A DNA stretch of 55,008 bases, taken from IMG/VR virus record IMGVR_UViG_3300045988_134234, positions 1-55,008 of that record; one strand, written 5' to 3'. Under the pieces are notes generated by a model, which had not been told where the DNA came from, made no database searches, and saw only the letters and a program-made list of their open reading frames with translations. This document shows positions 775 to 30,955 of the stretch, one piece after another. This DNA is from a virus (lineage: Duplodnaviria > Heunggongvirae > Uroviricota > Caudoviricetes). Made by a program: the position numbers and the translations under genes. Each line of letters starts with the position of its first letter. The first letter of the stretch is position 1.

Positions 775-909
775 ATGGACGTTATTCTCGAATTGTTAAA
801 GCTAATTGTTCTGTTTATGAACGCCTCGTTGACCACGCAAATACTGGCGTTAGTATTTTTGTTACTCTTCTACCTGGTATTAAGGGAGTTAACAAAGCTA
901 CTGAGTTGA
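775..909 (+). CDS. possible small hydrophobic peptide (~44 aa)
   Basis: Short ORF below ORF-track threshold, read by eye (MDVILELLKLIVLF...); approximate coordinates. Confidence 0.2.
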   Translation: MDVILELLKLIVLFMNASLTTQILALVFLLLFYLVLRELTKLLS

Positions 910-1563
910 TTAAAGTATCACCGTATCTTCATCAATTACTTGCCCGGCCAGCGATTTTGGTTGGGTATTTCCTGCTTTAGCTTTTTGATCGCTGATAATG
1001 GACAGGAACGAGGCCATTATCCCTGCTTTGTTTTCTTTCTCTACCGCTCCTGTCATTTGTTTCAGGTAATCCGCGCTGGCAACATTGTGGTATACCGTTG
1101 CATAGCAGCACAGAATCATCAGGATGTGCTCTGGTCGGATATCTTGCCAGTTAACTCGATAAACCTCTTCACCGTTGCCGTTGTATTCGGTATCGACGAT
1201 AGAGTCGGGGATCTCGAATGCCCCTTTGTTCTTGTCAGGCAGGGATAGCAGCCTTTGTAGTTTCAGCTCTCGGTATCTCTCCATGCCGACAATGATCGCC
1301 GCTCTGCCGTCGGCGTGCCGTGTTTTTAATGTTACCTGGCTGGCACCTGTACCGGCTGAAATGGTTGGCGTGATTTCGTCAACCAGCACCTTAAATTCGC
1401 TTTTACGCAGCTCGGCAATTGCTGGTGGAATTTTTCGTTTTTGTTCAATAGCAGATGCTGGGAGGGGCTTTACTTTGTCAATTACAAGCGCACCGTCTTT
1501 CAGGACTGCCGTAGCCATCAGCGGCTTGTTAGTCGAAAGGCTGAATATTGCGATCTTTTGCAT
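910..1563 (-). CDS. hypothetical protein (217 aa)
   Basis: Long ORF, GGAG about 9 nt upstream of ATG; no family recognised. Confidence 0.5.
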   Translation of the reverse strand: MQKIAIFSLSTNKPLMATAVLKDGALVIDKVKPLPASAIEQKRKIPPAIAELRKSEFKVLVDEITPTISAGTGASQVTLKTRHADGRAAIIVGMERYRELKLQRLLSLPDKNKGAFEIPDSIVDTEYNGNGEEVYRVNWQDIRPEHILMILCCYATVYHNVASADYLKQMTGAVEKENKAGIMASFLSIISDQKAKAGNTQPKSLAGQVIDEDTVIL

Positions 1564-1590
1564 GGCTTTTGCTCCACGATAGCAGGCACA

Positions 1591-1614
1591 AAAAAAGGCC
1601 GCACATGGCGGCCT
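1591..1614 (-). terminator. terminator-like hairpin (GGCCGC-loop-GCGGCC followed by T7 on minus strand)
   Basis: Perfect 6-bp GC stem followed by T-run on minus strand; sits in the 5' leader of the 910..1563 gene, so function is uncertain. Confidence 0.3.
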
Positions 1615-1829
1615 GCTTTGGCGTTATGACTCCCTACCGCGCATCGGCTGAAAGTTAGTCGTCAAAAGAACCTTCAACGGGAGCCGTTTGCGCAATGGAT
1701 TTTGTCCAGATTGTGATTTCCAGAATAGTGTCAACAATTTTTTTTGAATTTTTTATTCGCGCTGAATTTGGCCTAAGTCATTTTGGCGTAGATGTTTGTT
1801 TTTGTAACATAAAACTTCAGTTTGTTTAC

Positions 1830-2450
1830 ATGAAGGATGGTTTTGTGAAGTTAAGGGTTTTGGGAGCAGTGCTCGCGGTTATATTGGGGGGAGTTTCTCT
1901 TAATGCTGCCTATGCAGGCGCGTTACCTGCAAAGTATGAGGCTGGACTGAAGGTATTGCGGGACTATAAAACCGATAGACCTGATGAATTTATAGACTTT
2001 TGCGAAAAAGAAAATATCACGCTGCAACCGGTTGAACCGGGGTTTACAGGAAAGGGCGATTTCTGTTTGTTTGCGTATTCAGCAGACCGATTAGACAAGG
2101 CTATACGCAAGGCTGGCTATTCCACCAAAGACACTATGACAGCGTTAAGTAAAAGCTGGATGCAGTTTCAAGTTTATAGCCGGGAAGGAATGGGGGAGCT
2201 GTTGCAGCCGTTGTATGCTCTAGCATTGGTGCCGGAAGGTCAGCAGTTTCTGATCAAGAAAGGGTTCATGAGGGAGGAAGATGTAGCTGGTTTCGATGCC
2301 ATCGTTGCCTATGAAAAACAACTCAAGGAACAGCGCAATAAAAAACCATCTGCCTCATGCGTGCAAAGCAAAACAGCAGAATACAGCGCAGTGGCTGGGC
2401 CTTTAGCCCCACAAATGGCAGAGCAATGGTGTAAACAATACGGGCAATAA
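1830..2450 (+). CDS. secreted protein with N-terminal signal peptide
   Basis: Internal ATG of ORF 1695..2450; hydrophobic signal VKLRVLGAVLAVILGGVSLNAAYA; AT-rich upstream region. Confidence 0.5.
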   Translation: MKDGFVKLRVLGAVLAVILGGVSLNAAYAGALPAKYEAGLKVLRDYKTDRPDEFIDFCEKENITLQPVEPGFTGKGDFCLFAYSADRLDKAIRKAGYSTKDTMTALSKSWMQFQVYSREGMGELLQPLYALALVPEGQQFLIKKGFMREEDVAGFDAIVAYEKQLKEQRNKKPSASCVQSKTAEYSAVAGPLAPQMAEQWCKQYGQ

Positions 2451-2470
2451 GTTACGCAGCGGAGGCAGAA

Positions 2471-2863
2471 TTGAAAAGATTAGCTATTGCTTTATTGGCA
2501 GCTTTCCCTTTGATCGCTCACGCCGGGAATTTACAAGTGAAGTGCGGTAGGTTTGATATAAAAATCTATCCGAACGCCATATTTCTGAATGGGAATAAGG
2601 TCGATAACGCGCACCGGAAAACTGAATCTGACGTAATGAGCTATGTGTTCCAGGAGTATGCCGAGATGGGGGGAACTTACACGTTGTACTCGCTGGATGT
2701 TCCTTCTCGTGGTGATATGACGTTATCTCATCAATGGCAGAATGCCGATGGCGAAGCTCTGCGCGAGGTTAAAACAGAAAAATGTGGCACTTTCCATTCT
2801 TTTAAAGGGAAAGCGCCCAATGTTAAATCTACGCTTGAAAAACAGCGTGCTGGTGAGCTTTAA
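2471..2863 (+). CDS. small secreted protein with signal peptide
   Basis: MKRLAIALLAAFPLIAHA signal-like N-terminus; follows previous gene by about 20 nt. Confidence 0.5.
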   Translation: MKRLAIALLAAFPLIAHAGNLQVKCGRFDIKIYPNAIFLNGNKVDNAHRKTESDVMSYVFQEYAEMGGTYTLYSLDVPSRGDMTLSHQWQNADGEALREVKTEKCGTFHSFKGKAPNVKSTLEKQRAGEL

Positions 2864-3198
2864 GCCCCTTTAATCACGGAGATTTCGTTTCCCGCACGAT
2901 AGCGGCGGGGAACGGAACTCTCCATCAGGTCGCGAATTGCTCCCGCCTCACGCAGTTCCTCTGTCTCCCAGTATCTGTTTGTCACCAGGTCAAGGCTGGC
3001 AATGACTTTATGCCGGTCATTCGGCATTGCTTCTTTTTCAGCCATTATCATCAGTGAGAACTCTTCATCCAGTAGAATTTGATACCAGACTTTTGACAGT
3101 TCCAACTCTCTAATGAGGGTGAAGCGCCGCTCAATTGTGGCGGAAGAATAAGTGAAATCAATTTTTTTCGTGGCATACATTTTGCTGTGTCCGGTCAC
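2860..3198 (-). CDS. hypothetical protein (112 aa)
   Basis: ORF only; no motif recognised. Confidence 0.35.
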   Translation of the reverse strand: MTGHSKMYATKKIDFTYSSATIERRFTLIRELELSKVWYQILLDEEFSLMIMAEKEAMPNDRHKVIASLDLVTNRYWETEELREAGAIRDLMESSVPRRYRAGNEISVIKGA

Positions 3199-3210
3199 TT
3201 AGTAGTTAAA

Positions 3211-3229
3211 GCCCCGGCATGACCGGGGC
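3211..3229 (-). terminator. GC-rich hairpin downstream of Rha-like gene
   Basis: GCCCCGG-catga-CCGGGGC stem-loop; weak T tract; a similar hairpin follows the paralogous module at about 43979..43997. Confidence 0.3.
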
Positions 3230-3236
3230 AAATCTA

Positions 3237-4163
3237 TTAACTAACAATCCAGTCGGTCGCTGCTACATCTTCTGGCTGTAAATCAATCGCACAGATCTTG
3301 CCGTCGCGAATGGTGCGCCAGTTTTTCCGTGAGCCTCTTTCGGGCCATACCCAGACACTTTCAGGCCAGGATGCTCGACGGCATACGGTTGCATACCCTG
3401 TTTTAATCTTCTCTCTGGCGGTATGCAACGACAGGTTTGCCTTTGGACTTTCAGGCACAGGATGGTGAATGGCCTGAAATAGCCCCATCCTGGGATGATA
3501 CCAGCGTTTGTTACGTGGTTCTGCCTCCGACATAACCTGCTTAAAGGCTTTCCGGAAGGGGGCCAGGGCCACAATGGAGCGTCTCGCGAGCAAACCATCG
3601 GGAGTTAAAAACTCATGTGTATCGGTGGGAATCCGATACGCATTGACCAGGTTACGGCATTTGGCTTCAGTCAGGCCGCATTTCGCCGCTAACTGGCGGT
3701 AGCCAATGTAGCCTTCCGGAATATTGCCTTTCTTTATTTGCTCGACGGTTTCAGCGACTTTGGACACTTGTGCCGATACTTCGGCTACCTGGGCATTAAC
3801 GGCGTTGATCCGGCGTTCATGCTCAAGATGCATTTGCGCCATTTCGGCCAGGATTTCGGCTTTTGATTTTAACGGTCCCCTGGCATTCTCCAGTTCGCGC
3901 CAGCGGTCCACCAGCCGGGCGGTGAATTCGGGAGAGAGCTGCGCGACGACAATGATGCTATCGCGCTTGCCTTGCTCGCCTTCGAAGACGTAATAGCTCG
4001 CCGGGCGGCCTGCGGTGGGCTTTTCCTCAATTTGAGGAAAAGATATTACGCCCCGTTCCGCCAAGTGTTCAATGGTGCGTTTAACGTTATCAGGGCGCTT
4101 TCCTACCAGTTCCGCGATCTCAATGCTGGTCATTGTCGCTTTTTGAGAGATGGACAGATTCAT
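3237..4163 (-). CDS. Rha-family phage regulatory/antirepressor-like protein with DUF2829-like C-terminal domain
   Basis: N-terminus IEIAELVGKRPDNVKRTIEHL matches recalled Rha signature (IAE.FGK.H.NV.R.I..L); C-terminal 65 aa (CRRASW...VWVWPE...ATDWIVS) resembles the separate 70-aa ORF at 44006..44218. Confidence 0.6.
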   Translation of the reverse strand: MNLSISQKATMTSIEIAELVGKRPDNVKRTIEHLAERGVISFPQIEEKPTAGRPASYYVFEGEQGKRDSIIVVAQLSPEFTARLVDRWRELENARGPLKSKAEILAEMAQMHLEHERRINAVNAQVAEVSAQVSKVAETVEQIKKGNIPEGYIGYRQLAAKCGLTEAKCRNLVNAYRIPTDTHEFLTPDGLLARRSIVALAPFRKAFKQVMSEAEPRNKRWYHPRMGLFQAIHHPVPESPKANLSLHTAREKIKTGYATVCRRASWPESVWVWPERGSRKNWRTIRDGKICAIDLQPEDVAATDWIVS

Positions 4164-4378
4164 CAGTGCACCTCCACGCAGTTCATTGGCAGATTCCAGT
4201 AATTGAGGATCTCCATCGCATCAAGAGTGAAGCGAGCAGCAAAAATGCAGGGTTCTTCGGGAAGGTATGAGCGCGCCTCTGCTTCGGTAGCAGCCATTAC
4301 GCAGATATAAAGGTGTTTTTGGCAGGAATAGAAACGCCAGATAAATTCAGAATGAGTTGGGGTAGGGATAGTAGCCAT
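4163..4378 (-). CDS. small protein upstream of Rha-like gene (Icd/Ash-like position)
   Basis: 71 aa, AAGGAGG RBS, start overlaps stop of downstream gene; paralog at 44910..45134 shares EFIWRF...AATE.EARS motif. Confidence 0.5.
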   Translation of the reverse strand: MATIPTPTHSEFIWRFYSCQKHLYICVMAATEAEARSYLPEEPCIFAARFTLDAMEILNYWNLPMNCVEVH

Positions 4379-4379
4379 A

Positions 4380-4640
4380 TTGGCAGCCTCCTTTGACTAA
4401 GTTAAGGAGCTACCGCGTGAGGTTCCAATCTCAATGGCGGTAGCACTGACTGGGTTGGAACTACCGGCGTCAAAGGGAACCGGCCTGCCTTTCGGCAGCC
4501 CAGCCAGCACTACCATTGATCTCTGAGCTAAACGCTACGTATGGCTGTGCGATGGCGTGACACAAAAAAAGACGCTTTCGGCGTCTGTGTCGCCTTTGAC
4601 ATTATCCGGGGTTCCAATCCCGGCACCCGTTTTTCTAAGG
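4380..4640 (-). ncRNA. structured leader / candidate antisense-regulatory RNA (C4-like hypothesis)
   Basis: About 260 nt untranslated leader with repeated GATTGGAACC elements and a complementary GTTCCAACC element, multiple hairpins, and an anti-SD hairpin (CTCCTT...AAGGAG) sequestering the RBS of the 71-aa gene. Confidence 0.25.
4562..4586 (-). terminator. rho-independent terminator (minus strand)
   Basis: GACGC-cgaaa-GCGTC hairpin followed by T7 on minus strand. Confidence 0.55.
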
Positions 4641-4690
4641 TGCCGTAGAAATATACCTCACGATAATGCCAGGGCGCAACAGTCAGTATT

Positions 4691-4858
4691 TTATGCTTTG
4701 GCGGATTTCTTCCGGGCTTGCTTGCAGGCGTAGGCCATTGCTTTAGCTTTCACTTCATCCAGCTTTCCGGTGATCACTTCTTTTCCGAGAGTGACAAACC
4801 AGTCATAGCAACCGCCAGTAATGTTCTGGATTTGAAAGTTGAGGTAGCGAACGGTCAT
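4691..4858 (-). CDS. possible small protein (~55 aa)
   Basis: ORF below threshold read by eye (MTVRYLNFQIQNITGGCYDWFV...); G-rich RBS-like tract upstream; approximate coordinates. Confidence 0.3.
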   Translation of the reverse strand: MTVRYLNFQIQNITGGCYDWFVTLGKEVITGKLDEVKAKAMAYACKQARKKSAKA

Positions 4859-5179
4859 TTTGACCCCCCCAGCGCGAGTAAAGAATGCAGATTATCGCGT
4901 GAGTGGCGGACAACGAGTGATGGGAAAAGACAGTAGCTGTTCATAGTGTAGTGACTCCTTGCTTTCGGAGCCGCCATCGACTGTTCCACGGTCTGGTGGC
5001 GGCGCAATAAAGGTTGGAACACCGTGAGTCAACGGGGGCTTTTCAGCCACCTATATTGCACCGCCATTGGTATGGCGGCGGCAATCATACGAAAAACCAA
5101 ACGGTTTGTCTCAAAAAGTTGACCGGTGTACCAATCGGTTGTGAATGTACAACGGCGAATCTCACAATTCAACTTAAAA

Positions 5180-5202
5180 TGTTAGAAAATTAATTTATTA
5201 AT
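5180..5202. promoter_or_regulatory. operator-like motif TGTTAGAAAATTAATTTATTAA
   Basis: Member of a dispersed motif family (more than 12 copies) located at promoter regions. Confidence 0.4.
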
Positions 5203-5765
5203 TCAGTCACCATCTGATACAACGTCATTTCATCAGCATTGTGCCGCCTGAAATCTGCTTTGCCGCCTATTTTTCCATCAGCATGAACAGGAACCAACCA
5301 GGGGTATTGCTCGCGGATCTCTGCTGGCGCTGCGTGTTGATGGTGCCATTTACACAAAGGGAGGACGTATTTATGCGCGTTCTCTGCTGTTCTCCCGAAG
5401 ATGTGGTGCAGGGATACCACAGGGCTATGCTGTCCGTGCATATGGCAGGCAATGCAGGGGAGAGCACCGATGGCAGTTTGTATCCGGCGCTCATCTGCTG
5501 TGAGTGTTCTGCCTTTCAGGCCGCGTGACGCGCGAGTTTTTTTGACAGGAGCAGAAGCGGCCTTCTCTTTTCTTCGCTGTTCATATTGCTTCGCTTTTTC
5601 AATTTTCTTTTGCCGATATTCAGGCGATGCGGCTTTTTCTCGCGCACGCTGCTGCTGGCGTTGAGCTTGCTGAAGACGCTTTGCCCTTTGTTCCTCCCGC
5701 CATTTCGGATCAGCCAGTTTTTGCAGGGCTTTTTGTGTCTGTTTCTCCCAATAGCTTTGCTTCAT
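5190..5765 (-). CDS. HNH-family nuclease with basic N-terminal region (P1 Ref-like)
   Basis: C-terminal C..C / HH...N..H...LCKWHH HNH-like motif; Lys/Arg/Gln-rich low-complexity N-terminus; ATG chosen at Met15 of ORF 5190..5807 (a TTG at 5807 is the alternative); operator palindrome immediately upstream. Confidence 0.5.
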   Translation of the reverse strand: MKQSYWEKQTQKALQKLADPKWREEQRAKRLQQAQRQQQRAREKAASPEYRQKKIEKAKQYEQRRKEKAASAPVKKTRASRGLKGRTLTADERRIQTAIGALPCIACHMHGQHSPVVSLHHIFGRTAENAHKYVLPLCKWHHQHAAPAEIREQYPWLVPVHADGKIGGKADFRRHNADEMTLYQMVTELIN

Positions 5766-5810
5766 AGAAATACCCGGTTTGTCTACATCGCCGCTATGGT
5801 TGATCAAATG

Positions 5811-5840
5811 TGTTAGAAAATCAAAATTGATTTTCTAACA
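5811..5840. promoter_or_regulatory. 30-bp near-perfect palindromic operator TGTTAGAAAATCAAA/ATTGATTTTCTAACA
   Basis: Inverted pair of the dispersed motif between divergent Ref-like gene and the 5882.. operon. Confidence 0.6.
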
Positions 5841-5881
5841 CAAAATGAAGATACTTTTTTCAGACGCTATATCAGGAGGTC

Positions 5882-6037
5882 ATGATGCTTGTCGCAATAA
5901 GTGCAATCCACCAGCAATCCGGTACAGAAATTGGGTTGCTATATGCCCTGTTTTTCACTGTCCTGGCGTTGTTTGAGCTGGGCATTGAACTCTTTGCTCT
6001 CATCAACTTTTGCGTAACGTTCCTGGGGAAACTTTGA
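5882..6037 (+). CDS. possible small membrane peptide (~51 aa)
   Basis: Strong AGGAGG RBS; hydrophobic MMLVAISAIHQQSGTEIGLLYALFFTVLALF...; stop overlaps ATG of next gene (TGATG); approximate coordinates. Confidence 0.35.
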   Translation: MMLVAISAIHQQSGTEIGLLYALFFTVLALFELGIELFALINFCVTFLGKL

Positions 6038-6648
6038 TGTCAAAACGCATTATGAAAATTTACATCGCGGGTCCGATGACTGGTTATCCCGACTACAACC
6101 GCACAGCGTTTTTTTCGAAAGCAAAAGAGCTGATGGAGGAAGGGCATATTGTTCTGAATCCGGCGCTGTTACCTGCTGGCCTCTGCCAGAGCGAATACAT
6201 GGATATTTGCCTTGCAATGGTGCGTTCGGCTAATGCGGTCTATTTGCTCAAGGGGTGGGAGGAATCAGTTGGCGCTCGTGCAGAGCACGAGCTGGCTCAA
6301 AAGCTGGGGCTGAATGTAATTTATGAGTCACCAACCAACATTGAATGCCAAGTTGCTCCGCATATTTACCGGGAACTGGTCAATGCACTGCGTGATATCG
6401 CTGCTGTATATCACGGCACAGAACAGCTTCGTGAGCGTTTAGCCCATACCATTTCCTATTACCTGTCTGCATCTCATGAGCACAAGCTCCGTCAGAAGGT
6501 AATGATCAAATTTATCATGAGGTTATCGAAATCCCTGGCAAACGCCGATCCAAAGAATCCATTACCGAAAGTGGCAATGAATTACCTGAAGTCCTGCAAC
6601 ATTGTTTCTGAAGATGGCGTTCTTTTGGTTAGAAGGAGTTCTGCGTGA
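6037..6648 (+). CDS. nucleoside 2-deoxyribosyltransferase-like (DUF4406-like) N-terminal domain protein
   Basis: KIYIAGPMTGYPDYN...VLNP...YLLKGWEESVGARAEHELAQKLGL resembles recalled DUF4406/NDT-like fold signature; internal ATG of ORF 6010..6648. Confidence 0.4.
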   Translation: MSKRIMKIYIAGPMTGYPDYNRTAFFSKAKELMEEGHIVLNPALLPAGLCQSEYMDICLAMVRSANAVYLLKGWEESVGARAEHELAQKLGLNVIYESPTNIECQVAPHIYRELVNALRDIAAVYHGTEQLRERLAHTISYYLSASHEHKLRQKVMIKFIMRLSKSLANADPKNPLPKVAMNYLKSCNIVSEDGVLLVRRSSA

Positions 6649-10413: not shown

Positions 10414-10443
10414 TGTTAGAATATTGATTTTAATTTTCTAACA
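10414..10443. promoter_or_regulatory. operator-like inverted pair TGTTAGAA...TTTCTAACA
   Basis: Between phosphatase gene and the 10486 gene. Confidence 0.5.
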
Positions 10444-15658: not shown

Positions 15659-15958
15659 GTGATTATGTGGCGCGGTAATAATCATGGCGGAAGCCAGATG
15701 ATACTTACCGAATATAAGCTAGACCACAAAACCAATAAATCACGCTCAGTATATTTGCTCCGGCACAATAGCCGCGTAAGGAACACCGTGCTGGAGCAAA
15801 ATCTGACCGTTGAAATGGATAATTTGGGAAACTTCAAGCCAACAATATCGCTTGATGATTTTCCTCGTGGTTTAAGCGAAAGAGAAGCAATGCTGAAATT
15901 AGCAGAATGGCTACAAAGATTGAGCATTGTTATTGAAGATAACTGGAGTCAACCATAA
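15659..15958 (+). CDS. hypothetical protein (99 aa)
   Basis: ORF only. Confidence 0.4.
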   Translation: MIMWRGNNHGGSQMILTEYKLDHKTNKSRSVYLLRHNSRVRNTVLEQNLTVEMDNLGNFKPTISLDDFPRGLSEREAMLKLAEWLQRLSIVIEDNWSQP

Positions 15959-16041
15959 TGAAAAACAGAAAGAAATTTTGGATTACTTTTTTTGTTTGTA
16001 TGCCTTTGCGGTTTATTTGTTTTATTAGCTGGTGGTGTTAA
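15958..16041 (+). CDS. possible tiny hydrophobic peptide (~27 aa)
   Basis: MKNRKKFWITFFVCMPLRF...; start overlaps upstream stop (TAATG); approximate coordinates. Confidence 0.2.
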   Translation: MKNRKKFWITFFVCMPLRFICFISWWC

Positions 16042-16155
16042 ATGGGGTACGGTGGGGTGTGGTTTTTGGAGTGGGCTTACTCTTTTCGCAGCCTGGCTTA
16101 TCGCCAACTTTGAGTCAGGCGGAGGGTATTGGTAAGTGGTCTTATTCCCCACTTC

Positions 16156-16207
16156 ATAACGGATATCACGCTCGTGATAACGGATATTCCAATTTTGATA
16201 ACGGATA
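16156..16207. repeat. three direct repeats of (T)GATAACGGATA phased at 21 bp
   Basis: Copies at about 16156, 16177 and 16198 immediately upstream of the 16215 ATG. Confidence 0.6.
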
Positions 16208-16214
16208 AGGCCAA

Positions 16215-16424
16215 ATGAAGCATTTTTTAAGGTTGGCATTTGTTCTGGCGCTATTTGCTCCTCCGGCTGCGATGGCTGGAGAACAGCAACATTGCACAAA
16301 AGAGAATGAACACCCTTTCATCGTTATTCAATGTGATGATGGAACGGTGACAGTAGTTAATGTAAGAGATAAACGTGCAGCCGTATGCCGTAAAGGCGAA
16401 CCATGCAAGGAAATAAAACTATGA
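16215..16424 (+). CDS. small Cys-containing secreted protein
   Basis: MKHFLRLAFVLALFAPPAAMA signal-like N-terminus. Confidence 0.5.
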   Translation: MKHFLRLAFVLALFAPPAAMAGEQQHCTKENEHPFIVIQCDDGTVTVVNVRDKRAAVCRKGEPCKEIKL

Positions 16425-17274: not shown

Positions 17275-17625
17275 TCATTGTAGTGGGTGGCATTTAACGA
17301 AATCGATCACCCTATCCTGAACTTCAGAAAGAAGGGCTTTTTCACGCGCCAGGACGTCAGGATATTGACGTTCTGGCCTTACCAGATGCCGGAGCTTCCC
17401 ATTAAGCAGAATGGCCTCAGAAAACACTTTTACGCTGTGCTTTATCCCCTCTGTTTCACTTTTCAACGTCAAAATAAAGCGCAATTGCTTATTAGCCTGA
17501 TTCAGATTCAATACACGAATTTGCAGTTCGTCTATGCTGTTTCGCAATGGGATTGATGCCACCACACTGGTGCAGTCTCTGATTGTCTGAATTGAACGGC
17601 TAACATTGAGAACGTTATTGTGCAT
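17275..17625 (-). CDS. hypothetical protein (116 aa)
   Basis: ORF on opposite strand between same-strand arrays. Confidence 0.3.
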   Translation of the reverse strand: MHNNVLNVSRSIQTIRDCTSVVASIPLRNSIDELQIRVLNLNQANKQLRFILTLKSETEGIKHSVKVFSEAILLNGKLRHLVRPERQYPDVLAREKALLSEVQDRVIDFVKCHPLQ

Positions 17626-23462: not shown

Positions 23463-23484
23463 TGTTAGAAAATTAATTTATGAG
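23463..23484. promoter_or_regulatory. operator-like motif TGTTAGAAAATTAATTTATGAG
   Basis: Overlaps 3' end of cre-like gene, upstream of 23405 operon. Confidence 0.4.
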
Positions 23485-24786: not shown

Positions 24787-24859
24787 GAACAATCAAAAAA
24801 AAGCGGTTTTATCCTTTACTCACCTTGTTATTCAGCATAAATTTGTCACAGGACTTTTA

Positions 24860-24875
24860 TGTTAGAAAACTAAAT
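24860..24875. promoter_or_regulatory. operator-like motif TGTTAGAAAACTAAAT about 12 nt upstream of the 24888 ATG
   Basis: Motif immediately precedes RBS/start of the 345-aa gene. Confidence 0.45.
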
Positions 24876-24887
24876 CGAGTAGGAATA

Positions 24888-25925
24888 ATGAGTAAGAAGT
24901 CGATCGAGAATGAGTACAAACGGTTCCTGCAAACCGCTGAACGGTGGAAAGAGCTGGTGGTCGCAAACTCTGTTTTCCATGATACCAGTTATGTTGGCGA
25001 GGAATTTCGCCATGTTGCATTAACACATGATCCGGCTGTATTAGAAGAAGCTGAAAAATGCATAGCCGAATGGAAAGCCTTTGTTGATCTGTGTCGCAAG
25101 GATGATGACAAAGCCTCAAACATTGTTGAGTCGGTTTATTTACCGATCCCATTCATTGTTGAGGATACTAATCAGAGTACGCATATCGTTATGCAAAGCG
25201 CAACCACAACGAGAACATTTACGCGCGAAGACCTGCTGAAAAAATACGATAAAACTATAAAGAAAAGCATGAAAAACAGGATATTTTCACAGGTTGTCGG
25301 TGCGCTTGAAGAAGAACGCAGATTCTTCGCCGCTGAACGTGAGGGCGAGGTATACCGCGCAAGAAAAGAAGGTTATACCGATGTGGTGATTACCACCAAT
25401 ATCGAGGGCAACAATGGACTTTCACGCTTCAGAGTGGGTACGCACGGTGCGCTGATCTTTGCCAGAAAAGCAAACACAGAGATTCCCGTTGTTAACAACG
25501 TTGGTGAGCGCCGCACCCTTACCATTTACACTGGCATTAAACCGCTTCCGTGCGGACTTCTCGGCGAATTTGACCTTTATCGGGTTCGTGATCTGGAAAA
25601 GCAGCAGCCAAGCTATGTCGTGAAGTCATATATCCTGAGAAACATTGATATCCGCAATCAGAGTTTAAAAAACAAATCAGATAAAATGCTGGCCGAAGCC
25701 GATCCAGCCATACACCAGATCGTTAGCCGGAAAATTCAAGAGGCTAAAGATGCAATGGCAAGGCTGGATAAAATGGACCTGGAACTACTGGAAGTTATGA
25801 TTGCCTCCGGCGATGACCTGACAGGCATCCGCCTTACTGAAGCCAGGAAAAAATACGGTAAAAGCGTTGAAGAACGCTATGGGTACACATTCACACAAAC
25901 GATGTACGCGGCAAAACTCTGGTAA
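24888..25925 (+). CDS. hypothetical protein; candidate master repressor by position and operator context
   Basis: Internal ATG (Met22) of ORF 24825..25925 with AGGAA RBS; between lox/cre and terminase, convergent with pacB; no sequence-level family assignment possible. Confidence 0.35.
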   Translation: MSKKSIENEYKRFLQTAERWKELVVANSVFHDTSYVGEEFRHVALTHDPAVLEEAEKCIAEWKAFVDLCRKDDDKASNIVESVYLPIPFIVEDTNQSTHIVMQSATTTRTFTREDLLKKYDKTIKKSMKNRIFSQVVGALEEERRFFAAEREGEVYRARKEGYTDVVITTNIEGNNGLSRFRVGTHGALIFARKANTEIPVVNNVGERRTLTIYTGIKPLPCGLLGEFDLYRVRDLEKQQPSYVVKSYILRNIDIRNQSLKNKSDKMLAEADPAIHQIVSRKIQEAKDAMARLDKMDLELLEVMIASGDDLTGIRLTEARKKYGKSVEERYGYTFTQTMYAAKLW

Positions 25926-25942
25926 TCGCAAACCACCCACAA

Positions 25943-25964
25943 GCCCCGAATCGCCGGGGCTTTT
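25943..25964 (+). terminator. rho-independent terminator
   Basis: GCCCCG-aatcgc-CGGGGC followed by TTTT, directly after the 24888..25925 stop. Confidence 0.55.
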
Positions 25965-27471
25965 AAATGTCAATATCAGGAATATCCACTTCTGCCAACA
26001 CCTGATCGCGGAATGTTGCGAGTTCTGCGCCAATGTCTTCATTAGCAGGCACGTAATCCACCAGCATAGTGAAGCAGTAGGTATCCCATCTGTCCGGCGA
26101 CTTGATGTTTAACTTCTGCCGCATGTGCTCCTTGCGCATCATCGCTACCTTCCCTTCTTCGTTAAGCATATACGGGATTTTTGATGCCTGATCTGCGGTT
26201 TTGGGGTCACTATCGATACGCATACGCCCGGATTTAATGGCATCCCCTGCCATAATATTGGCGTAAGCACGCTGATTGACAAAGCGTTCTCTGTCTCTTA
26301 GCGCAAACATAGGCTTACCCCAACGGATGCGAACGGGATTAGCACCACGGCGGACAAGCTGCGCACACGTATCTGAACCAAAGCCATCAGCATCCACAGC
26401 AATGGTGATGTTCGGGTATTTATCAGGAGTGCATTCGTTATAGATAAAGTCGGCAAAAGCCAACGGGTCCATAGTGCCTGACATCTCCAGTATCTTAAAG
26501 TTCACAACGCGTCGTTTCTCACGATAACCGGATACTTTGCATATATTGAGCACCGATTTGTCGCGACCATTACCGACGTCAGCGGTCGCTACCCAGCCCC
26601 AATCTTTCTCCAGCAACACTTTACGCCGTGCGGCGCGGTCGCACTCATCACGACCAAGCAAATACCCGTTAATTGCACGCGGGAACTGGCCCAGCACCTT
26701 AACCATGTACTCCAGCGAATCCCTGCCGCCGTACTCCAGCAATTTCTCACGAATAAAGCTCGGTTCAACGAATGGTGATTCTTCAGAGTTAAGGACTATT
26801 GCCGTCCAGACACCTTCCGGATTGCCTTCTGCCTTTGCCCTTGAATGGTGAGATTCATAAAAGTAACCGCTTGGACGCGTAGGCTGGGAAAGCATGAGCA
26901 TACGGTTATCTTTCTGCGTTAACGCCCCCGTCATGACGTTAATCGCCTTATCGGATATGCCCGATGCTTCATCAAGGATTAGCAGTAAATGCTCCGCGTG
27001 CTCCCCCGCCAGTGCCTCTTCGTTACCGAGTCGATAACCTTTACAGAGCACTTCCCATATCCCTTTACGGGAACGCTCATAAAACATGGTGTCAGACAGG
27101 ACAAAATAGGTCTGTAACCAGCCGTGGCGCTTAACAGCATTCGCCCAAAACTGTTTCACGTATTTGAATACGCCTGTTTTTACCTGGCCTATTTTGTTCG
27201 CAACAATAATGACGCGGGCGTCGGGGAACAGGATCATAAAAATTAGTAGCAACATCGCGGTAAGGGACGACTTACCCGTTCCGTGTCCGGACGTAACGGT
27301 CGTCCTGCTCCCCGTCTCCTGCACTGACTGAATGATCTGCTGCTGCTGGTGGGAGGGGAACATCCCAAAAATATCGACAACCGCTTGGGTAAAGTTGTAT
27401 CGATACCTGATAACCATATCGCGCCAACGTGGATCACTGGTGACGCACTTAATCTTACGACCACCAGCCAT
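25963..27471 (-). CDS. pacB: terminase large subunit (PacB-like)
   Basis: Walker A VTSGHGTGKSS, Walker B LLLILDEAS; C-terminal nuclease-type region; 502 aa. Confidence 0.85.
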   Translation of the reverse strand: MAGGRKIKCVTSDPRWRDMVIRYRYNFTQAVVDIFGMFPSHQQQQIIQSVQETGSRTTVTSGHGTGKSSLTAMLLLIFMILFPDARVIIVANKIGQVKTGVFKYVKQFWANAVKRHGWLQTYFVLSDTMFYERSRKGIWEVLCKGYRLGNEEALAGEHAEHLLLILDEASGISDKAINVMTGALTQKDNRMLMLSQPTRPSGYFYESHHSRAKAEGNPEGVWTAIVLNSEESPFVEPSFIREKLLEYGGRDSLEYMVKVLGQFPRAINGYLLGRDECDRAARRKVLLEKDWGWVATADVGNGRDKSVLNICKVSGYREKRRVVNFKILEMSGTMDPLAFADFIYNECTPDKYPNITIAVDADGFGSDTCAQLVRRGANPVRIRWGKPMFALRDRERFVNQRAYANIMAGDAIKSGRMRIDSDPKTADQASKIPYMLNEEGKVAMMRKEHMRQKLNIKSPDRWDTYCFTMLVDYVPANEDIGAELATFRDQVLAEVDIPDIDI

Positions 27472-28835
27472 TAGTCATCCTCCGGCTGGTCTATCGCAAT
27501 CTCGTCATCCACAGCATCAAAACCGGTATCCCCCGCGTCATAATCACCGTAGATATCAGCCGTGGCGGAAGGGTCTATATTCAGGTCTTCATCATTGGCC
27601 TCAAATTCACCGGCTTTACGTTCTCCGTTCCGGTCGTAATCCCCCATCCCAAGCCTATCAACGATTTTCGCTACTTCAGCCCGGCGTTGTGCAAGCCATT
27701 GTGGGAGTCCAGCTTGTTGCTCGGCAAACTGCTTCGCCTCTTTATCCAGTTGCTCATCATCAACATCGTTAACGTCAGAAACCGGAGGCTCCAGAAGTGA
27801 GATCGCTTTTGCCGCTCGTGCCGCCAGGATAGCCGGGACACTGACGCCCTGCCGCTCGATATATTCAGCAACACCTATATCATCCAGCTCCTCGCGCTCA
27901 CGCATACGTATAGCGGCGGCGATAACTCTGGCGGCGCGTGCGTCAGCGCCAATGCGATACTCAATCTCCTTGCCACGCTGCTCGGCTTGTAGGCGGGCAA
28001 TCGCCAGTTTTTCTCTGGCCTCAGCCTCCCTGAATGCCTGCTGACGCGCGCCCTGCGCAAGTTTTTCATCCCCCTGGCGTAGCTTCTGCTCGTTCTGATA
28101 GATGGCTGCCAGCCTGGTGATAAAGTCATTCATGTAGTAGGCCGCATCGCTGATCAGTCCGAGAAGACGCTGCCCTGGGTGCATCCCCTCTGGCTGTGTA
28201 TCACCGAGGGCGTCAATCTCTTCCTGTAGTCGCTCCGCTTCCTGGTCAACGATAGCCTGATACTGAATTGCTCGTTCCTGCGCCATCTGTATCGCAAGTC
28301 GTAAATGTTCAGTCGCGCCGTTCTTCATCATCTCACGGGCGACGTTGGTGGCTGGCAAAGTGGCGCTTTGAGCTGATGAATCAGGGATCATTTGCAATGA
28401 TCCCTTGTTTCGTTGGGCTTTTTCGCTGCTTTTAGGGATCATTTCTCCAATTTCATCACAAAATGATCCCTTCACATCCTTGTGTATCTTGCTGTTATTG
28501 CTTGACTTTTCTTTGTGATCCGCATTTTGTTTTTGCGGCATGGCGCGGAACCGTCCACCAGCTAACGATTTGTCAGTTTTTGTAAATTCTGTGCTTTTAT
28601 CAGCCTTTTTTTGCTCTTTTTTTGAGCCGGTGGCGCAGCTTTTTGCGCGCTGTTTTGTACTTTTCCCGGCAGCCTTAGCTTTCGCCTTAACCTCATTTTT
28701 TTTCATATTGAGATGCTTTCTGGCGGTGTTAAAGCTGAGGTCATGCTGCTCGCAATATTCTTTTATGGTGATCCCGGTTTCTTCTCTTAACTCCAGGAAC
28801 TTAGCTCGATGCGCTTCCCAGTTAATTAACGTCAT
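27471..28835 (-). CDS. pacA: terminase small subunit (PacA-like) containing pac-like GATC cluster
   Basis: N-terminal HTH-like (ITIKEYCEQHDLSFNTARKHL), Lys-rich region, acidic C-terminus; overlaps pacB start. Confidence 0.6.
   Translation of the reverse strand: MTLINWEAHRAKFLELREETGITIKEYCEQHDLSFNTARKHLNMKKNEVKAKAKAAGKSTKQRAKSCATGSKKEQKKADKSTEFTKTDKSLAGGRFRAMPQKQNADHKEKSSNNSKIHKDVKGSFCDEIGEMIPKSSEKAQRNKGSLQMIPDSSAQSATLPATNVAREMMKNGATEHLRLAIQMAQERAIQYQAIVDQEAERLQEEIDALGDTQPEGMHPGQRLLGLISDAAYYMNDFITRLAAIYQNEQKLRQGDEKLAQGARQQAFREAEAREKLAIARLQAEQRGKEIEYRIGADARAARVIAAAIRMREREELDDIGVAEYIERQGVSVPAILAARAAKAISLLEPPVSDVNDVDDEQLDKEAKQFAEQQAGLPQWLAQRRAEVAKIVDRLGMGDYDRNGERKAGEFEANDEDLNIDPSATADIYGDYDAGDTGFDAVDDEIAIDQPEDD
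28383..28520. promoter_or_regulatory. pac-like cluster of five GATC-containing heptamers (GGGATCA/TGATCCC)
   Basis: GATC at about 28386, 28399, 28437, 28465, 28516 arranged as inverted pairs within pacA codons about 105-150. Confidence 0.5.
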
Positions 28836-29224
28836 AGGGAAGCCTCACGTTTTTTCACAGCGGCGTTCCATAGCTGGTTAGTCATCGCCACCAACTGACG
28901 CTGCTCCTTTCGTAATTGAGCTTCTATCTTTCGGTTGGTGTTTTTCACCAACAGCCGACCGAATTCAGGAGTGCGCCCGCGCACCTTGAACTGGTATCCA
29001 TTCAGGCCATGTAACCAATATTTCCGGGGGTATACGCGGTCGTCTATTTCGCAAATGGCACGACTGGAACGAACAAAAAAACGTATGATGTTATTTACGT
29101 TTACGCGCGACACATGAAGGTGAGGATATTGTGCTTTTGCACGGCTGGTGATTTCGGTGACCGTCAGATAGCAGTCAGCCCTGATCATGATATCCGCTAT
29201 TTCGGCGCTACTGATTTGCTCCAT
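28832..29224 (-). CDS. hypothetical protein immediately upstream of pacA (Lpa-like position)
   Basis: 130 aa; operator palindrome directly upstream. Confidence 0.35.
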   Translation of the reverse strand: MEQISSAEIADIMIRADCYLTVTEITSRAKAQYPHLHVSRVNVNNIIRFFVRSSRAICEIDDRVYPRKYWLHGLNGYQFKVRGRTPEFGRLLVKNTNRKIEAQLRKEQRQLVAMTNQLWNAAVKKREASL

Positions 29225-29301
29225 TTATCCCCCGGATAGAAAAAGACCGAGGGGATGATAATCAGCTTGTTAATACTGAGAAGACTGTCAAAAACATGAT
29301 G

Positions 29302-29331
29302 TATTAGAAAATTAATATTAATTTACTAACA
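29302..29331. promoter_or_regulatory. operator-like imperfect palindrome TATTAGAAAATTAAT/ATTAATTTACTAACA
   Basis: Upstream of the 29224 start. Confidence 0.5.
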
Positions 29332-29715
29332 CTACCAGCGGGATAAACGAACAACATGCTTAACTTTTGCCTCCCACTTCCCTTTATGTTTGTTGATCAC
29401 CGCCTGGGCCATCTTCAGACTGGCTTCAAAATCGGCTTTTCGACCACTATTACCCACCAGCAACGCTCCGTCTATTTCAGGTAAGCATAAGTAATCCTGC
29501 TCGACGGTAAGCGGCATTGATGATGTAACCTGGCAGGCTTTCCATCTGAAGCGTATGCGCACACTCCTGACTGACATCACGACATAACCTGATATTGTGC
29601 TCTTGTGTCCGGCGTCTGTGCGTGTAGCCTTGCATGATGTTATCTTGCAGGTGATGATGTCCCAACCAATGTGCATCGCATCCTCAATGCGTAATTTAGT
29701 AGCCTCGTACATCAA
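29332..29715 (-). CDS. hypothetical protein (127 aa)
   Basis: ORF; overlaps next gene. Confidence 0.4.
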   Translation of the reverse strand: MMYEATKLRIEDAMHIGWDIITCKITSCKATRTDAGHKSTISGYVVMSVRSVRIRFRWKACQVTSSMPLTVEQDYLCLPEIDGALLVGNSGRKADFEASLKMAQAVINKHKGKWEAKVKHVVRLSRW

Positions 29716-30287
29716 AAAACCTCCCAGTCAGTAGCGATAATATCAACACCAGTTGCAAACCAGTCTGTCTGCGCCTGTAAATCCCCATTCATCATTACCA
29801 GGCGAGGCATAACCATCACATCACAACCTTCAACAATATCGAATGCCTCTTCCGGCAGGAATTCGACGAGCTTTTCTTTGCTACCAACACTGCCACGGAG
29901 CATCGATATATAGCTCCCTTTAGGCCATGATGTTCGCCGGGCATCAAGCCCCTTCATCATCCAGTAAAAGGCCGATGAGAACGGGATGTTCTTTTTGGCG
30001 ATGAGCACGTTATTCGCTTCTGTGTACTTCAGGAACTTAACTAACCTTACCATCGACTCGGATAACGCAATGTACGGCTCATGATTGATTGCTGACACAC
30101 TTACGCCGTGCAGTCCAACACTTACCACTGTCATATCACCGTTCTGTGCGGTTTCGATGTTGACGCCTTTACGAACTAACGCTGCATAAAGCTCCTCGCG
30201 CTTTTGCGTCCAGCATTCTCGTCGCCCTATAAAGTCACTCAAAACGAGATCATCTTCTGAATACGCGTTATCGTTCGCCGTTAACAT
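29712..30287 (-). CDS. hypothetical protein (191 aa)
   Basis: ORF downstream of tRNA island. Confidence 0.45.
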   Translation of the reverse strand: MLTANDNAYSEDDLVLSDFIGRRECWTQKREELYAALVRKGVNIETAQNGDMTVVSVGLHGVSVSAINHEPYIALSESMVRLVKFLKYTEANNVLIAKKNIPFSSAFYWMMKGLDARRTSWPKGSYISMLRGSVGSKEKLVEFLPEEAFDIVEGCDVMVMPRLVMMNGDLQAQTDWFATGVDIIATDWEVF

Positions 30288-30507
30288 AACGTCTCCTTTT
30301 TTACACGCGCGACTATCCCCCGGCTGAACCGGTAGTGACGTCGTAACTTCGTATTAATTAAGGGTTACAGCCTGAGCGGCTATATGATGAATTGAAAGGA
30401 GTTGTGGCGGTGGTGCCTCCACCTGCCAGGTTAGCCACGCCCGGCGACGACACTTATCAGAACGTAGTGAATGAAAATGGCTTCGTCACGAGCGCATAGC
30501 CGCAATT

Positions 30508-30556
30508 ACCACAACGGAGAAGGCGCTCGTATTAATTAAACACCTTTTCCTGTTGT
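30508..30556. repeat. long-hairpin family unit A
   Basis: ACCACAACGGAGAAGG...CCTTTTCCTGTTGT inverted arms. Confidence 0.45.
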
Positions 30557-30741
30557 ACGCCGTGCTATTCCGGCTGTCACACCGAATCGCCAGGATGGTG
30601 AGTCCCTGAGTCCGCTATCCTACCAACGGTGACTTGCACATTCCGGCTACCTGATGTGCCCATGCAGTGTTAGTAAGGCACCTAACAGCTACACCAGACC
30701 GCTAACGACGCATGTGCCATACGCCGTGTTACAACCAAATG

Positions 30742-30817
30742 TGGTGGCCCCTACCGGACTTGAACCGGTGACCGTGCGATTATGAGTCGCCCGCTCTAAC
30801 CACTGAGCTAAGGGGCC
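30742..30817 (-). tRNA. tRNA anticodon CAU (Met or Ile2 via lysidine)
   Basis: RC reads GGCCCCTTAGCTCAGTGGTTAGAGC...CTCATAA...GGTTCAAGTCC...GGGGCCACCA; resembles recalled E. coli ileX/ileY-type tRNA. Confidence 0.8.
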
Positions 30818-30826
30818 AGATTACTG

Positions 30827-30955
30827 TTAATTACGCTTACGCTTTTTGCCAGAACCGCGTAAGGCTTTTGCCGCTTGCTCTACCCCGTATGCAACCACCA
30901 GCAGAAACAATAATGTCCACTCCGGGTTTTTATCGGCAAACGCCCAAAAATCCAT
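30827..30955 (-). CDS. possible small membrane peptide (~42 aa)
   Basis: MDFWAFADKNPEWTLLFLLVVAYG...; AGGTGG RBS-like upstream; approximate coordinates. Confidence 0.3.
   Translation of the reverse strand: MDFWAFADKNPEWTLLFLLVVAYGVEQAAKALRGSGKKRKRN

Follow-up and report, generated by a model that had tools for sequence, protein, structure and literature searches.

Five small, probably unrelated genes of a D6-like phage-plasmid, one of them frameshifted

The window, the whole 55,008-nucleotide stretch that we analysed, belongs to the P1 family of phage-plasmids and is D6-like. A preliminary description had listed five plausible small hydrophobic or basic peptide genes in it, and all five (here c1 to c5) are present as intact, ATG-initiated ORFs at exactly the coordinates given there (Table 1). 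That they fell below the size cutoff of the ORF track does not mean that they had escaped annotation. Nearly all are recorded elsewhere as hypothetical proteins (D6 orf77, orf85 and orf88, P1 tciC, and the PGAP entries WP_000218500.1, WP_157209371.1, WP_157924453.1 and WP_255097511.1), and the finding is a largely ordinary one.

Table 1. Small ORFs and neighbouring features of the window.
Feature	Position	Strand	Description
c1	775-909	+	44-aa hydrophobic peptide gene; D6 orf77 orthologue; phrog_38362, E 2e-23
ant	3237-4163	-	After C4 RNA, same strand; D6 annotation
icd	4163-4378	-	After C4 RNA, same strand; D6 annotation
C4 antisense RNA	4433-4520	-	immI region; 77.1 bits
IsrK-like sRNA	4565-4643	-	Rfam RF01394, 62.7 bits (gathering 50); directly downstream of c2
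c2	4691-4858	-	55-aa soluble protein with basic tail; 100% identical to D6 orf85; phrog_7786; WP_000218500.1
29-codon ORF upstream of c2	4855-4944	-	C-terminal part of D6 orf86; stop overlaps c2 start (ATGA)
Inverted pair of operator-like motif TGTTAGAAAATCA	5811-5840		Between ref and c3
c3	5882-6037	+	50/51-aa hydrophobic peptide gene; D6 orf88; phrog_8890; WP_157209371.1
c4 as first described	15958-16041	+	27-codon frame: 12 native codons and 15 out of frame
Full gene behind c4	15958-16135	+	58-aa two-TM membrane protein, MKNRKKFWITFLFVCLCGLFVLLAGGVKWGTVGCGFWSGLTLFAAWLIANFESGGGYW in relatives; WP_157924453.1
T7 homopolymer	15987-15993	+	T6 in every aligned relative; extra T gives +1 frameshift
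tRNA, CAU anticodon	30742-30817	-	Met by ARAGORN, Ile by PGAP: lysidine tRNA-Ile2, equal to P1 trnI
c5	30827-30955	-	42-aa TciC-family protein; start ATG 30955 or GTG 30958

Between positions 1 and 32,000 we counted 157 ATG-initiated ORFs of 27-59 amino acids, against 167 ± 12 in shuffled sequence. Since such ORFs are as common as in shuffles, size is no evidence and conservation had to be the test. TM-like small ORFs were enriched in the same region (14 vs 5 ± 2 in shuffles); of these, only c1, c3 and c4 lie outside larger ORFs. Relatives were retrieved through neighbouring genes or an adjacent tRNA, never through the small ORFs themselves (anchors were Mat for c1, Icd for c2, DUF4406 for c3 and the tRNA for c5), and dN/dS was calculated as the pooled pairwise Nei-Gojobori ratio without a tree. 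In all five proposed frames, variable alignment columns pile up at codon position 3 (binomial p = 0.004-0.02) and are depleted at position 2. With c4 taken as its full 58-aa gene, dN/dS was 0.16-0.26, values that rest on few substitutions because each family is shallow and spans few clusters (3-26). Stops interrupt the remaining two sense frames, where dN/dS is 0.6-3.1 (c2 and c3) or 0.56-0.82 (full-length c4). These comparisons demonstrate, at the level of sequence, purifying selection on c1, c2, c3 and c5 in the proposed frame, and this evolutionary pattern points to their translation. The preliminary description had named frame conservation with synonymous bias as one of its checks; once run on independently sampled relatives, the check found the frames kept, and thus not the loss of frame that would have spoken against genes.

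The ribosome-binding sites that had been claimed are strong for c3 (AGGAGGT) and acceptable for c2 (a G7 tract), c4 (GGAG at 9 nt) and c5 (AAGGTGG); that of c1 is weak in the window (AGTGTGA), where most relatives have GGAG. Overlaps with neighbours are real: the start of c4 shares bases with the stop before it (TAATG), that of c2 with the stop of the 29-codon ORF, and the stop of c3 with the next start (TGATG). Hydrophobicity, scored as the best 19-aa Kyte-Doolittle window, holds for c1 (2.30), c3 (2.25) and c4 (1.74). c5 has a short core (1.49, ~13 hydrophobic residues) and a strongly basic tail, and c2 is not hydrophobic (0.51) but has a basic C-terminus. From hydropathy and charge layout under the positive-inside rule, c1, c3, full-length c4 and c5 would be small inner-membrane proteins.

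The stop of c1 meets that of mat tail-to-tail with no gap, and c1 was intact as a 44-codon ORF abutting the mat stop in 29 of the 31 loci fetched through Mat. Its 15 alleles vary at 19/10/29 columns by codon position (dN/dS 0.26), and two alleles with a diverged N-terminal half (L014 and L026) are of unchanged length. The final ~55 nt are almost invariant, even where the remainder diverges. PGAP makes no call for c1 in a 100%-identical plasmid. An amphipathic N-terminal stretch precedes a TM segment at about residues 18-36, and the protein is predicted to be single-pass, its acidic N-terminus outside and its basic C-terminus inside.

c2 lies directly upstream of an IsrK-like/C4 RNA-icd-ant immunity region and of the promoter of its IsrK-like RNA, and homology between the window and P1-type loci begins just past its stop. 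It was intact in 24 of the 25 usable D6-type loci, with dN/dS of 0.22 overall and 0.086 over codons 1-46; both alternative sense frames are interrupted by stops and exceed 1 in dN/dS. An AF2 model (pLDDT 85.8) has four strands and a C-terminal helix, and the core motif is kept in a distant homologue, P0015, at 61% identity. The 29-codon ORF just upstream ends in the G7 tract that doubles as the c2 Shine-Dalgarno sequence. It is open in all 25 aligned relatives, two of which (L185 and L186) carry in-frame 3-nt and 9-nt indels, and some database entries fuse it in frame with c2. Since it lacks codon periodicity (variable sites 7/8/9), it behaves as a leader or coupling ORF and not as a selected protein. 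c2 may be translated by coupling to this short leader, in a transcript that would run on into the immunity region, and it is most likely a small nucleic-acid- or protein-binding modulator of the immunity switch.

c3 starts at 5882 or, by Shine-Dalgarno spacing, more likely at 5885. All 32 P1/D6-like loci fetched through DUF4406 have it intact, 31 of them with the TGATG overlap with the DUF4406 start, while it is absent from 13 distant DUF4406 loci. Its dN/dS is 0.155, compared with 0.19 for the neighbour and 0.62 and 3.1 for the alternative sense frames, both with stops. Only three clusters at 50% identity were found among 1.84 billion proteins. The motif TGTTAGAAAATCA has 15 sites in the window where 1.8 are expected, and these fall at lpa, ref, the c1 gene and immI, as do the C1 operators of P1; judging by position, it is probably a prophage-repressor site. 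c3 would head an operon that diverges from ref and sits behind the paired motif. Translationally coupled to the DUF4406 (nucleoside deoxyribosyltransferase-like) gene in this operon, it would therefore be made early after induction or infection. Its product is predicted to form one long or re-entrant hydrophobic helix with two conserved glutamates.

The end of c4 at 16041 in the preliminary description is the product of a 1-nt insertion private to the window and not the true gene end. The 58-aa ORF is intact in six relatives (L083, L084, L086, L087, L106 and L116), and diverged homologues of 52-54 aa occur in three more (L129, L130 and L137); PGAP calls the gene as a 177-nt CDS. The plasmids of E. 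coli, Salmonella and Shigella that gave the best full-length matches all lack 1 nt relative to the window. Full-length c4 has dN/dS of 0.26 (variable columns 12/5/18). The antisense strand, too, has an open shadow frame in most relatives (dN/dS 0.32). We assign the gene to the sense strand because the TAATG junction is conserved, the sequence resembles that of a membrane protein, stops occur in L106 and the direction of the operon agrees. We found neither a PHROG nor a Pfam model for this family. The intact protein would be a helical hairpin with its N-terminus inside, preceded by an MKNRKK anchor, and the allele of the window is probably null.

c5 is located between tRNA-Ser and tRNA-Ile2(CAU) on the same strand, the latter beginning 9 nt past its stop. 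An MxFWxFADKxP motif at the N-terminus is followed by a short TM segment and a KKRKRN tail, and the protein would be single-pass with its acidic N-terminus outside and basic C-terminus inside. c5 matches phrog_23152 at E 0.0018 (3e-27 for P1 TciC), hhalign aligns it with P1 TciC at 97% (E 7e-11), and by these profile comparisons c5 is a TciC homologue. A further ATG upstream, at 30988, is out of frame in L284 and L323. Among tRNA-anchored loci with enough upstream sequence, P1-type TciC occurs in 59 and D6-type in 17; dN/dS of c5 is 0.195 (variable columns 6/1/13). Since tciA and tciB are absent, c5 is an orphan, and its retention where both are lost suggests that TciC is independent of them. 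The name 'tellurite/colicin resistance/inhibition of cell division' stems from TciA homology only. P1-like elements vary in their tciABC region (PMC9603915), and a CRISPRi screen found that P1 does not need TciC for lytic growth (PMC10695390). c5 is part of a tRNA operon, and RNase P cleavage at tRNA-Ile2 would set the 3' end of its mRNA.

We consider it likely that the five sites are five unrelated small genes in accessory and regulatory regions of the phage-plasmid and not one system, with c1, c2, c3 and c5 intact and c4 a frameshifted 58-aa gene. It is very unlikely that the ORFs are untranslated and their conservation reflects DNA or RNA signals: the mat terminator in c1, an immI leader RNA at c2, a DUF4406 operon leader at c3 and tRNA-operon spacer or processing signals at c5. 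The near-invariant end of c1 fits such signals, as do the positions of c2, c3 and c5 in transcript leaders or spacers and the shuffle-like frequency of small ORFs, and the open but aperiodic 29-codon ORF shows that frames can persist here without protein-level selection. However, the position bias and low dN/dS of the proposed frames argue for proteins, the start-stop overlaps are conserved, and protein motifs outlast strong nucleotide divergence (c1 in L014 and L026, c2 in P0015, c4 in L129 and L130, and P1- versus D6-type TciC). We regard as extremely unlikely that the 27-aa c4 peptide is itself functional, or that T7 is a programmed or phase-variable switch between 27-aa and 58-aa products. 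Homopolymers are the usual substrate of slipped-strand variation, L127 carries an independent 1-nt deletion in another homopolymer of the gene, and the large genes of the window have no frameshifts, so the assembly is not generally error-prone. Yet the 15 out-of-frame residues occur nowhere else, every other IMG/VR allele is one base shorter or T6, as are the best plasmid matches, and seven T's are short for efficient transcriptional or replicative slippage.

The preliminary description had also likened the peptides to holins, Kil or type I toxins. That some of them, c1 above all, are membrane-damaging toxins silenced by antisense RNA or timing, serving addiction, lysis timing or host shut-off, is in our view unlikely. 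c1 would suit this role as a stand-alone gene for 44 aa, amphipathic in the N-half and very hydrophobic in the C-half (a composition that we take to resemble TisB/Hok-type peptides), with a weak Shine-Dalgarno sequence and transcription opposite to both neighbours; given the zero gap to mat, the convergent mRNAs must overlap. The replicon is moreover a low-copy plasmid prophage with phd-doc already aboard. Against this, no holin, Hok/Gef, Ldr, TisB, Fst, Kil or defence model in Pfam, NCBIfam, PHROGs or PADLOC matched c1-c5, no known antitoxin sRNA in Rfam lies beside them, and none has an endolysin neighbour. The c2 product is soluble and of beta+alpha type, coupling to an enzyme gene makes c3 unlike a type I toxin, and TciC in P1 is dispensable and, in its context, non-toxic. 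Frameshifts of the c4 gene in two lineages fit dispensable cargo and a counter-selected toxin equally. As accessory 'moron'-type genes, c1, c3, full-length c4 and c5 most likely encode proteins that bind or modulate host or phage membrane proteins, and not lysis or killing functions.

Compared with known systems, c1, c3 and full-length c4 resemble type I toxins (Hok, TisB, Ldr, Fst) and class I-III holins in size range, hydrophobicity and plasmid-prophage setting, whereas c1-c5 differ in having no family match, cognate antisense RNA family or endolysin neighbour, and c3 in its operon coupling. Among the closest counterparts are those of D6, with the same position, length and strand: orf77 (YP_009914754, PHROG 38362; ~84% protein identity by eye) for c1, orf85 (YP_009914762, PHROG 7786) for c2 and orf88 (YP_009914765, PHROG 8890; ~70% by eye) for c3. 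Their records carry the label 'hypothetical protein', with no selection, context or function data attached. The 58-aa hypothetical protein WP_157924453.1 of P1/D6-like plasmids shares the TAATG junction with the upstream phrog_1258 gene and is ~95% identical to c4 once one T is removed, the allele of the window being frameshifted after codon 12. P1 TciC, third gene of tciABC, shares with c5 the motif, a single hydrophobic segment, the A-L-R/K ending and a place directly upstream of a CAU-anticodon tRNA. c5 is longer (42 vs 35 aa), its hydrophobic core is shorter and its KKRKRN tail is an addition; it lies 9 nt instead of 3 nt from the tRNA, and stands alone where P1 TciC is accompanied by tciA (TerB-like) and tciB (DUF3927). 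Small protein-coding ORFs also occur in bacterial tRNA operons, such as that for the basic Tpr peptide in the E. coli tyrT operon. c5 is, like these, short and basic-tailed, but it shares no homology with them and has a membrane segment.

The window was assigned to the P1 family of phage-plasmids by megablast, with Escherichia phage D6 as the closest annotated relative (approximately 89-90% identity over 56-76% of the two tested halves). The gene map around the five candidate small ORFs, c1 to c5, was taken from the D6 annotation; their neighbors are the baseplate and mat genes, immI, ref and DUF4406, accessory genes and tRNAs. Rfam models also identified an IsrK-like RNA, an a1b1 element and C4 antisense RNAs at two loci. 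Near the candidates, generic scans for sigma-70 promoters and terminators exceeded shuffled sequences only at the IsrK terminator.

Positions 1-32000 contain 157 ATG-initiated ORFs of 27-59 aa, compared with 167 +/- 12 in shuffled sequences. Small ORFs with TM-like segments were enriched in the same region (14 versus 5 +/- 2 in shuffles), and among these only c1, c3 and c4 were not located inside larger ORFs. Since ORF size is no evidence by itself, the decisive test was conservation of the frame with synonymous bias, as the preliminary description had proposed. To avoid selecting for the small ORF itself, IMG/VR loci were fetched through a neighbor: Mat for c1, Icd for c2, the DUF4406 protein for c3 and the upstream 99-aa phrog_1258 protein for c4, while c5 was anchored by 33 invariant nucleotides of the adjacent tRNA. 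In these independently sampled relatives, c1, c2, c3 and c5 kept their reading frames and showed synonymous bias. For c4 this was true of a 58-codon frame but not of the 27-codon frame originally reported. Sequence comparison thus supports small-gene status for four candidates and for the corrected fifth. Wider homolog searches confined all families to P1/D6-type plasmids of approximately 90 kb; tblastn gave no matches for c1, probably an effect of the low-complexity filter. The c1, c2 and c3 loci were carried by approximately 95-125 of 5,426 complete E. coli genomes. The loci are already in public annotation, as hypothetical proteins or TciC.

Features of the window, with the variable alignment columns at codon positions 1/2/3, dN/dS (here and in the text pooled pairwise and not tree-corrected, from narrow families and shallow alignments) and the P-value for the excess at position 3
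Feature	Position	Strand	Variable columns	dN/dS	P	Source or context
c1	775-909	+	19/10/29	0.26	0.006	
c2	4691-4858	-	8/5/16	0.22 (codons 1-46: 0.086)	0.013	
c3	5882/5885-6037	+	17/9/28	0.155	0.004	
c4, reported 27-aa frame	15958-16041	+				
c4-full, 58-aa gene	15958-16135	+	12/5/18	0.26	0.020	frameshifted in window
c5	30827-30955	-	6/1/13	0.195	0.004	
Perfect LexA-box core	568-583					over start codon of gene-26 homolog
27-codon ORF, D6 orf76	615-698	+				upstream of c1
17-bp near-palindrome	682-698					overlaps D6 orf76
Icd	4163-4378					D6 annotation; known division inhibitor of the replicon
C4 antisense RNA, first locus	4433-4520	-				Rfam; IsrK-like RNA before, icd-ant after
IsrK-like RNA	4565-4643	-				Rfam
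29-codon ORF	4855-4944					upstream of c2, overlaps its start
G7 tract	4859-4870	-				just upstream of c2 ATG
T7 tract	15987-15993					within c4
Four tRNAs	30742-31943	-				
Second C4 locus, separate	45181-45266, 45335-45387	-				a1b1 target element before, second Ant-like gene after
TGTTAGAAAAT(T/C)A sites	5180-5192, 5811-5840, 10431-10443, 23463-23475, 24860-24872, 29302-29331, 33127-33139, 33260-33289, 34522-34534, 45480-45492, 46670-46682					

All five ORFs translated cleanly, and the overlaps with neighboring starts and stops are real: TGATG for c3, TAATG for c4 and ATGA for c2, with c1 and mat lying tail to tail at zero gap. Three of the peptides are hydrophobic: c1 (44 aa), c3 (51 aa) and the 27-aa c4. 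In c5 (42 aa) the hydrophobic core is short and the tail is KKRKRN, and c2 (55 aa) has a basic tail but is not hydrophobic. The best 19-aa hydropathy windows of c1, c3 and c4-full ranged from 2.25 to 2.6, c5 was borderline, and c2 failed as a small hydrophobic peptide. Membrane topologies were assigned from hydropathy and charge only, and operators and promoters from position.

We found c3 in all 32 P1/D6-like loci, 31 of which have the TGATG overlap, and it was absent from 13 distant DUF4406 loci. Its two alternative sense frames contained stops and had dN/dS values of 0.62 and 3.1; the value for the adjacent DUF4406 codons was 0.19. An end-to-end HMM match (E 7e-31) and conserved synteny identify c3 as D6 orf88 (phrog_8890, WP_157209371.1). 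Only three c3 clusters at 50% identity were found among 1.84 billion proteins, and the sole phage record with c3 is D6. We favor the second ATG (5885) as the start, based on SD spacing and the PHROG alignment, while PGAP takes the first. An inverted pair of TGTTAGAAAATCA lies between ref and c3. This motif, TGTTAGAAAAT(T/C)A, occurred 15 times in the window with at most two mismatches, compared with 1.8 occurrences expected, and several of these were inverted pairs. Its sites mirror the P1 C1-operator regulon: they are found at ref, at immI, at the c1 repressor gene (not the candidate ORF; the C1 homolog is at 24888-25925), and upstream of both lpa and the second C4 locus. Judging from these positions, the motif is probably the D6-type prophage-repressor operator. 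The pair between ref and c3 would therefore place the c3-DUF4406 operon under repressor control, and c3 appears to be its first cistron.

In relatives, the ATG of c4 begins a 58-aa protein, MKNRKKFWITFLFVCLCGLFVLLAGGVKWGTVGCGFWSGLTLFAAWLIANFESGGGYW. The window has a T7 tract where every aligned relative has T6, so the 27-aa frame consists of 12 native and 15 out-of-frame codons, and the remainder of the gene runs on in the +2 frame to 16135. Owing to this frameshift, the boundaries first assigned to c4 were wrong. Among E. coli genomes and in PLSDB, every one of the best full-length matches was one base shorter than the window, and PGAP annotates the 177-nt CDS as WP_157924453.1. Diverged homologs of 52-54 aa are still open, and in one relative this gene has independently lost 1 nt. 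Since the window's large genes have no frameshifts relative to D6, the additional T is a true null mutation or else a one-off homopolymer error.

On the opposite strand, a frame over c4-full is open with a dN/dS of 0.32 and spans the intergenic gap and the start of the next gene. We rejected this frame, a 116-aa ORF at 15949-16299(-), as a gene, considering it a shadow frame with a TTG start, a low-complexity product and three stops in one relative. Nor is it D6 orf106, which has the same length (351 nt) but maps to window positions 17278-17625 (tblastn). The slot after the phrog_1258 gene (window 15659-16424, loci L080-L159 of the relatives) is a cargo-exchange hotspot with a shared junction, TAATGAAAAAC (MKNRK...). 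Depending on the locus, it holds the 58-aa gene, a membrane protein of 124 or 102 aa, a remnant of 12 codons, or a fusion with the secreted/lipoprotein-like 69-aa gene that follows downstream (16215-16424).

The 44-codon c1 ORF, which abuts the mat stop, was intact in 29 of 31 loci and missing from L007 and L031, which have other DNA in its place. Its dN/dS, calculated from fifteen alleles, compares with 0.085 for mat, and the remaining frames contained stops in at least some alleles. In L014 and L026 the N-terminal half is strongly diverged, but both alleles retain the ORF length, the amphipathic pattern and, at the C-terminus, the invariant VFLLLFYLVLRELTKLL. This ORF is D6 orf77 (phrog_38362; end-to-end HMM match, E 2e-23) and has the same neighbors as in D6. 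The family comprised 26 clusters from D6-type plasmids only. The SD of c1 is weak in the window and GGAG in most relatives.

Upstream of c1, the near-palindrome TCACTGGTGACAAGTGA occurs once in the window and is followed by a conserved CTTTCATTAATCT. Together these could form a promoter/operator that works in both directions between gene 26 and c1. A Lpa-type late promoter in front of c1 is doubtful, as TCACTGGTGACAAGTGA is unique in the window and so is no repeated late-promoter box here. LexA control was rejected: the perfect LexA-box core CTGT-N8-ACAG (CTGTAACTCATAACAG) is not conserved in relatives, approximately 0.8 such sites are expected by chance, and its presence is likely coincidental.

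Identical to D6 orf85 (phrog_7786, WP_000218500.1; end-to-end HMM match, E 2e-43) and in the same synteny, c2 was restricted to D6-type loci. Homology to P1-type elements begins just after its stop, where the IsrK-like and C4 RNAs begin, placing c2 at the entrance of the IsrK/C4-icd-ant immunity region. It was intact in 24 of 25 usable loci, and the exception is a contig with length-changing indels also in mat and DUF4406. The two alternative sense frames had stops and dN/dS >1. A homolog at 61% identity retains Y-L-x-FQI-x-N-x-TGGCYDW...LD-x-VKAKAMAYAC. The AlphaFold2 model was confident (pLDDT 85.8), with four strands and a C-terminal helix, and its structural neighbors were weak and heterogeneous. 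The 29-codon ORF overlapping the c2 start stays open through in-frame indels with no codon periodicity (7/8/9), and we interpret it as an ORF for coupling or as a leader. At the position of the window's G7 tract, the sequence in every IMG/VR relative is GGGGG(T/A)G, and some database proteins of 83-85 aa join the 29-codon ORF to c2 through ...LLALGG(G)(G)K-MTVRY. These differences suggest indel variation at the G-rich junction. In NZ_CP159120, PGAP called a 39-aa 'ash family protein' CDS over the C4 antisense RNA (198-317 of the fetched locus, L360; window ~4400-4520), probably mistaking an RNA gene for a coding sequence.

The proposal that such peptides might be holin-like, Kil-like or type I toxin-like found no support. 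None of the candidates matched holin families or lambda Kil in Pfam, NCBIfam or PHROGs, and no endolysin/spanin cassette adjoins them. Searches of Pfam, NCBIfam and PADLOC revealed nothing relevant among the Hok/Gef, Ldr, TisB, Ibs, Sho, Fst and Zor toxin families, and no Rfam antitoxin RNA family was found near any candidate. Further, c3 is operon-coupled and c2 has a soluble fold. Some type I-like features are kept by c1, a stand-alone hydrophobic peptide with an obligatory 3' overlap with a convergent gene, and transcription of the convergent mat gene could provide an antisense RNA for it. We consider this the most interesting open reading, albeit one of low probability. If c1 were a TisB-like pore-forming peptide, it would be gated by the obligatory 3' overlap with mat mRNA, and the plasmid prophage would then carry a type I-like module of a new kind. 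In a second reading, c2 with its coupled leader ORF would be a previously unrecognized small regulator of the second-immunity switch in D6-type phage-plasmids; by binding either the IsrK-like/C4 leader RNA or its promoter DNA, it would set expression of the anti-repressor (Ant) and Icd. Both readings are improbable.

The small-gene observation was essentially right, and none of these results overturns current understanding. In practice these results serve annotation: explicit evolutionary support as genes is gained for four short ORFs of D6-type phage-plasmids, c1 proved to have been missed by PGAP in a 100%-identical E. coli plasmid, and what was called c4 should instead be annotated as a 58-aa membrane-protein gene with a frameshift. 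For research on small proteins of phage-plasmids that spread in E. coli and Salmonella, the candidates offer targets that are well defined and inexpensive to study.

Alignment with D6 and a P1-like phage placed c5 in the tciC position beside the CAU-anticodon tRNA. An upstream ATG (30988) was rejected as its start, being out of frame in two loci and missing from other alleles; the correct start is therefore the one originally proposed or PGAP's GTG, one codon further upstream. The tRNA-anchored loci with enough upstream sequence comprised 59 with a P1-type TciC (35 aa), 17 with a D6-type TciC (37-53 aa), 34 with an SPFH cassette instead and one with none, and in some other loci TciC lies behind an SPFH gene. 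The gap between stop and tRNA is 9 nt for c5 and the 17 D6-type loci, and 3 nt in the 59 P1-type loci. In the D6 reference (NC_050154, ~6100-6280), a TciC-like ORF, MMDFWTYIDKNPGWSLLFLLVIVYGVEQVAKNLRRRK, and a CAU-anticodon tRNA are found downstream of tciB, both unannotated. The window cleanly lacks tciA and tciB at 30956-31246. From c5 to tRNA-Ser, its spacer is nearly the same as in D6, with identity above the regional average of ~89%, and the 33-nt junction piece that gives c5 its SD has no D6 counterpart.

In P1, tciC is non-essential for plaque formation (PMC10695390), and tciABC belongs to the regions that vary among P1-like elements (PMC9603915). The HMM of the P1 TciC family (phrog_23152) matched c5 itself with only E 0.0018, whereas the D6-type and P1-type alignments matched each other with an hhalign probability of 97% (E 6.7e-11, 34 columns). 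Like P1 tciC before trnI, c5 is located upstream of and co-oriented with a CAU-anticodon tRNA. Unlike in the P1 tciABC operon, it stands without tciA and tciB, a layout common to 51 E. coli genomes. The retention of TciC beside tRNA-Ile2 without TciA and TciB sets it apart from its 'tellurite/colicin' label.
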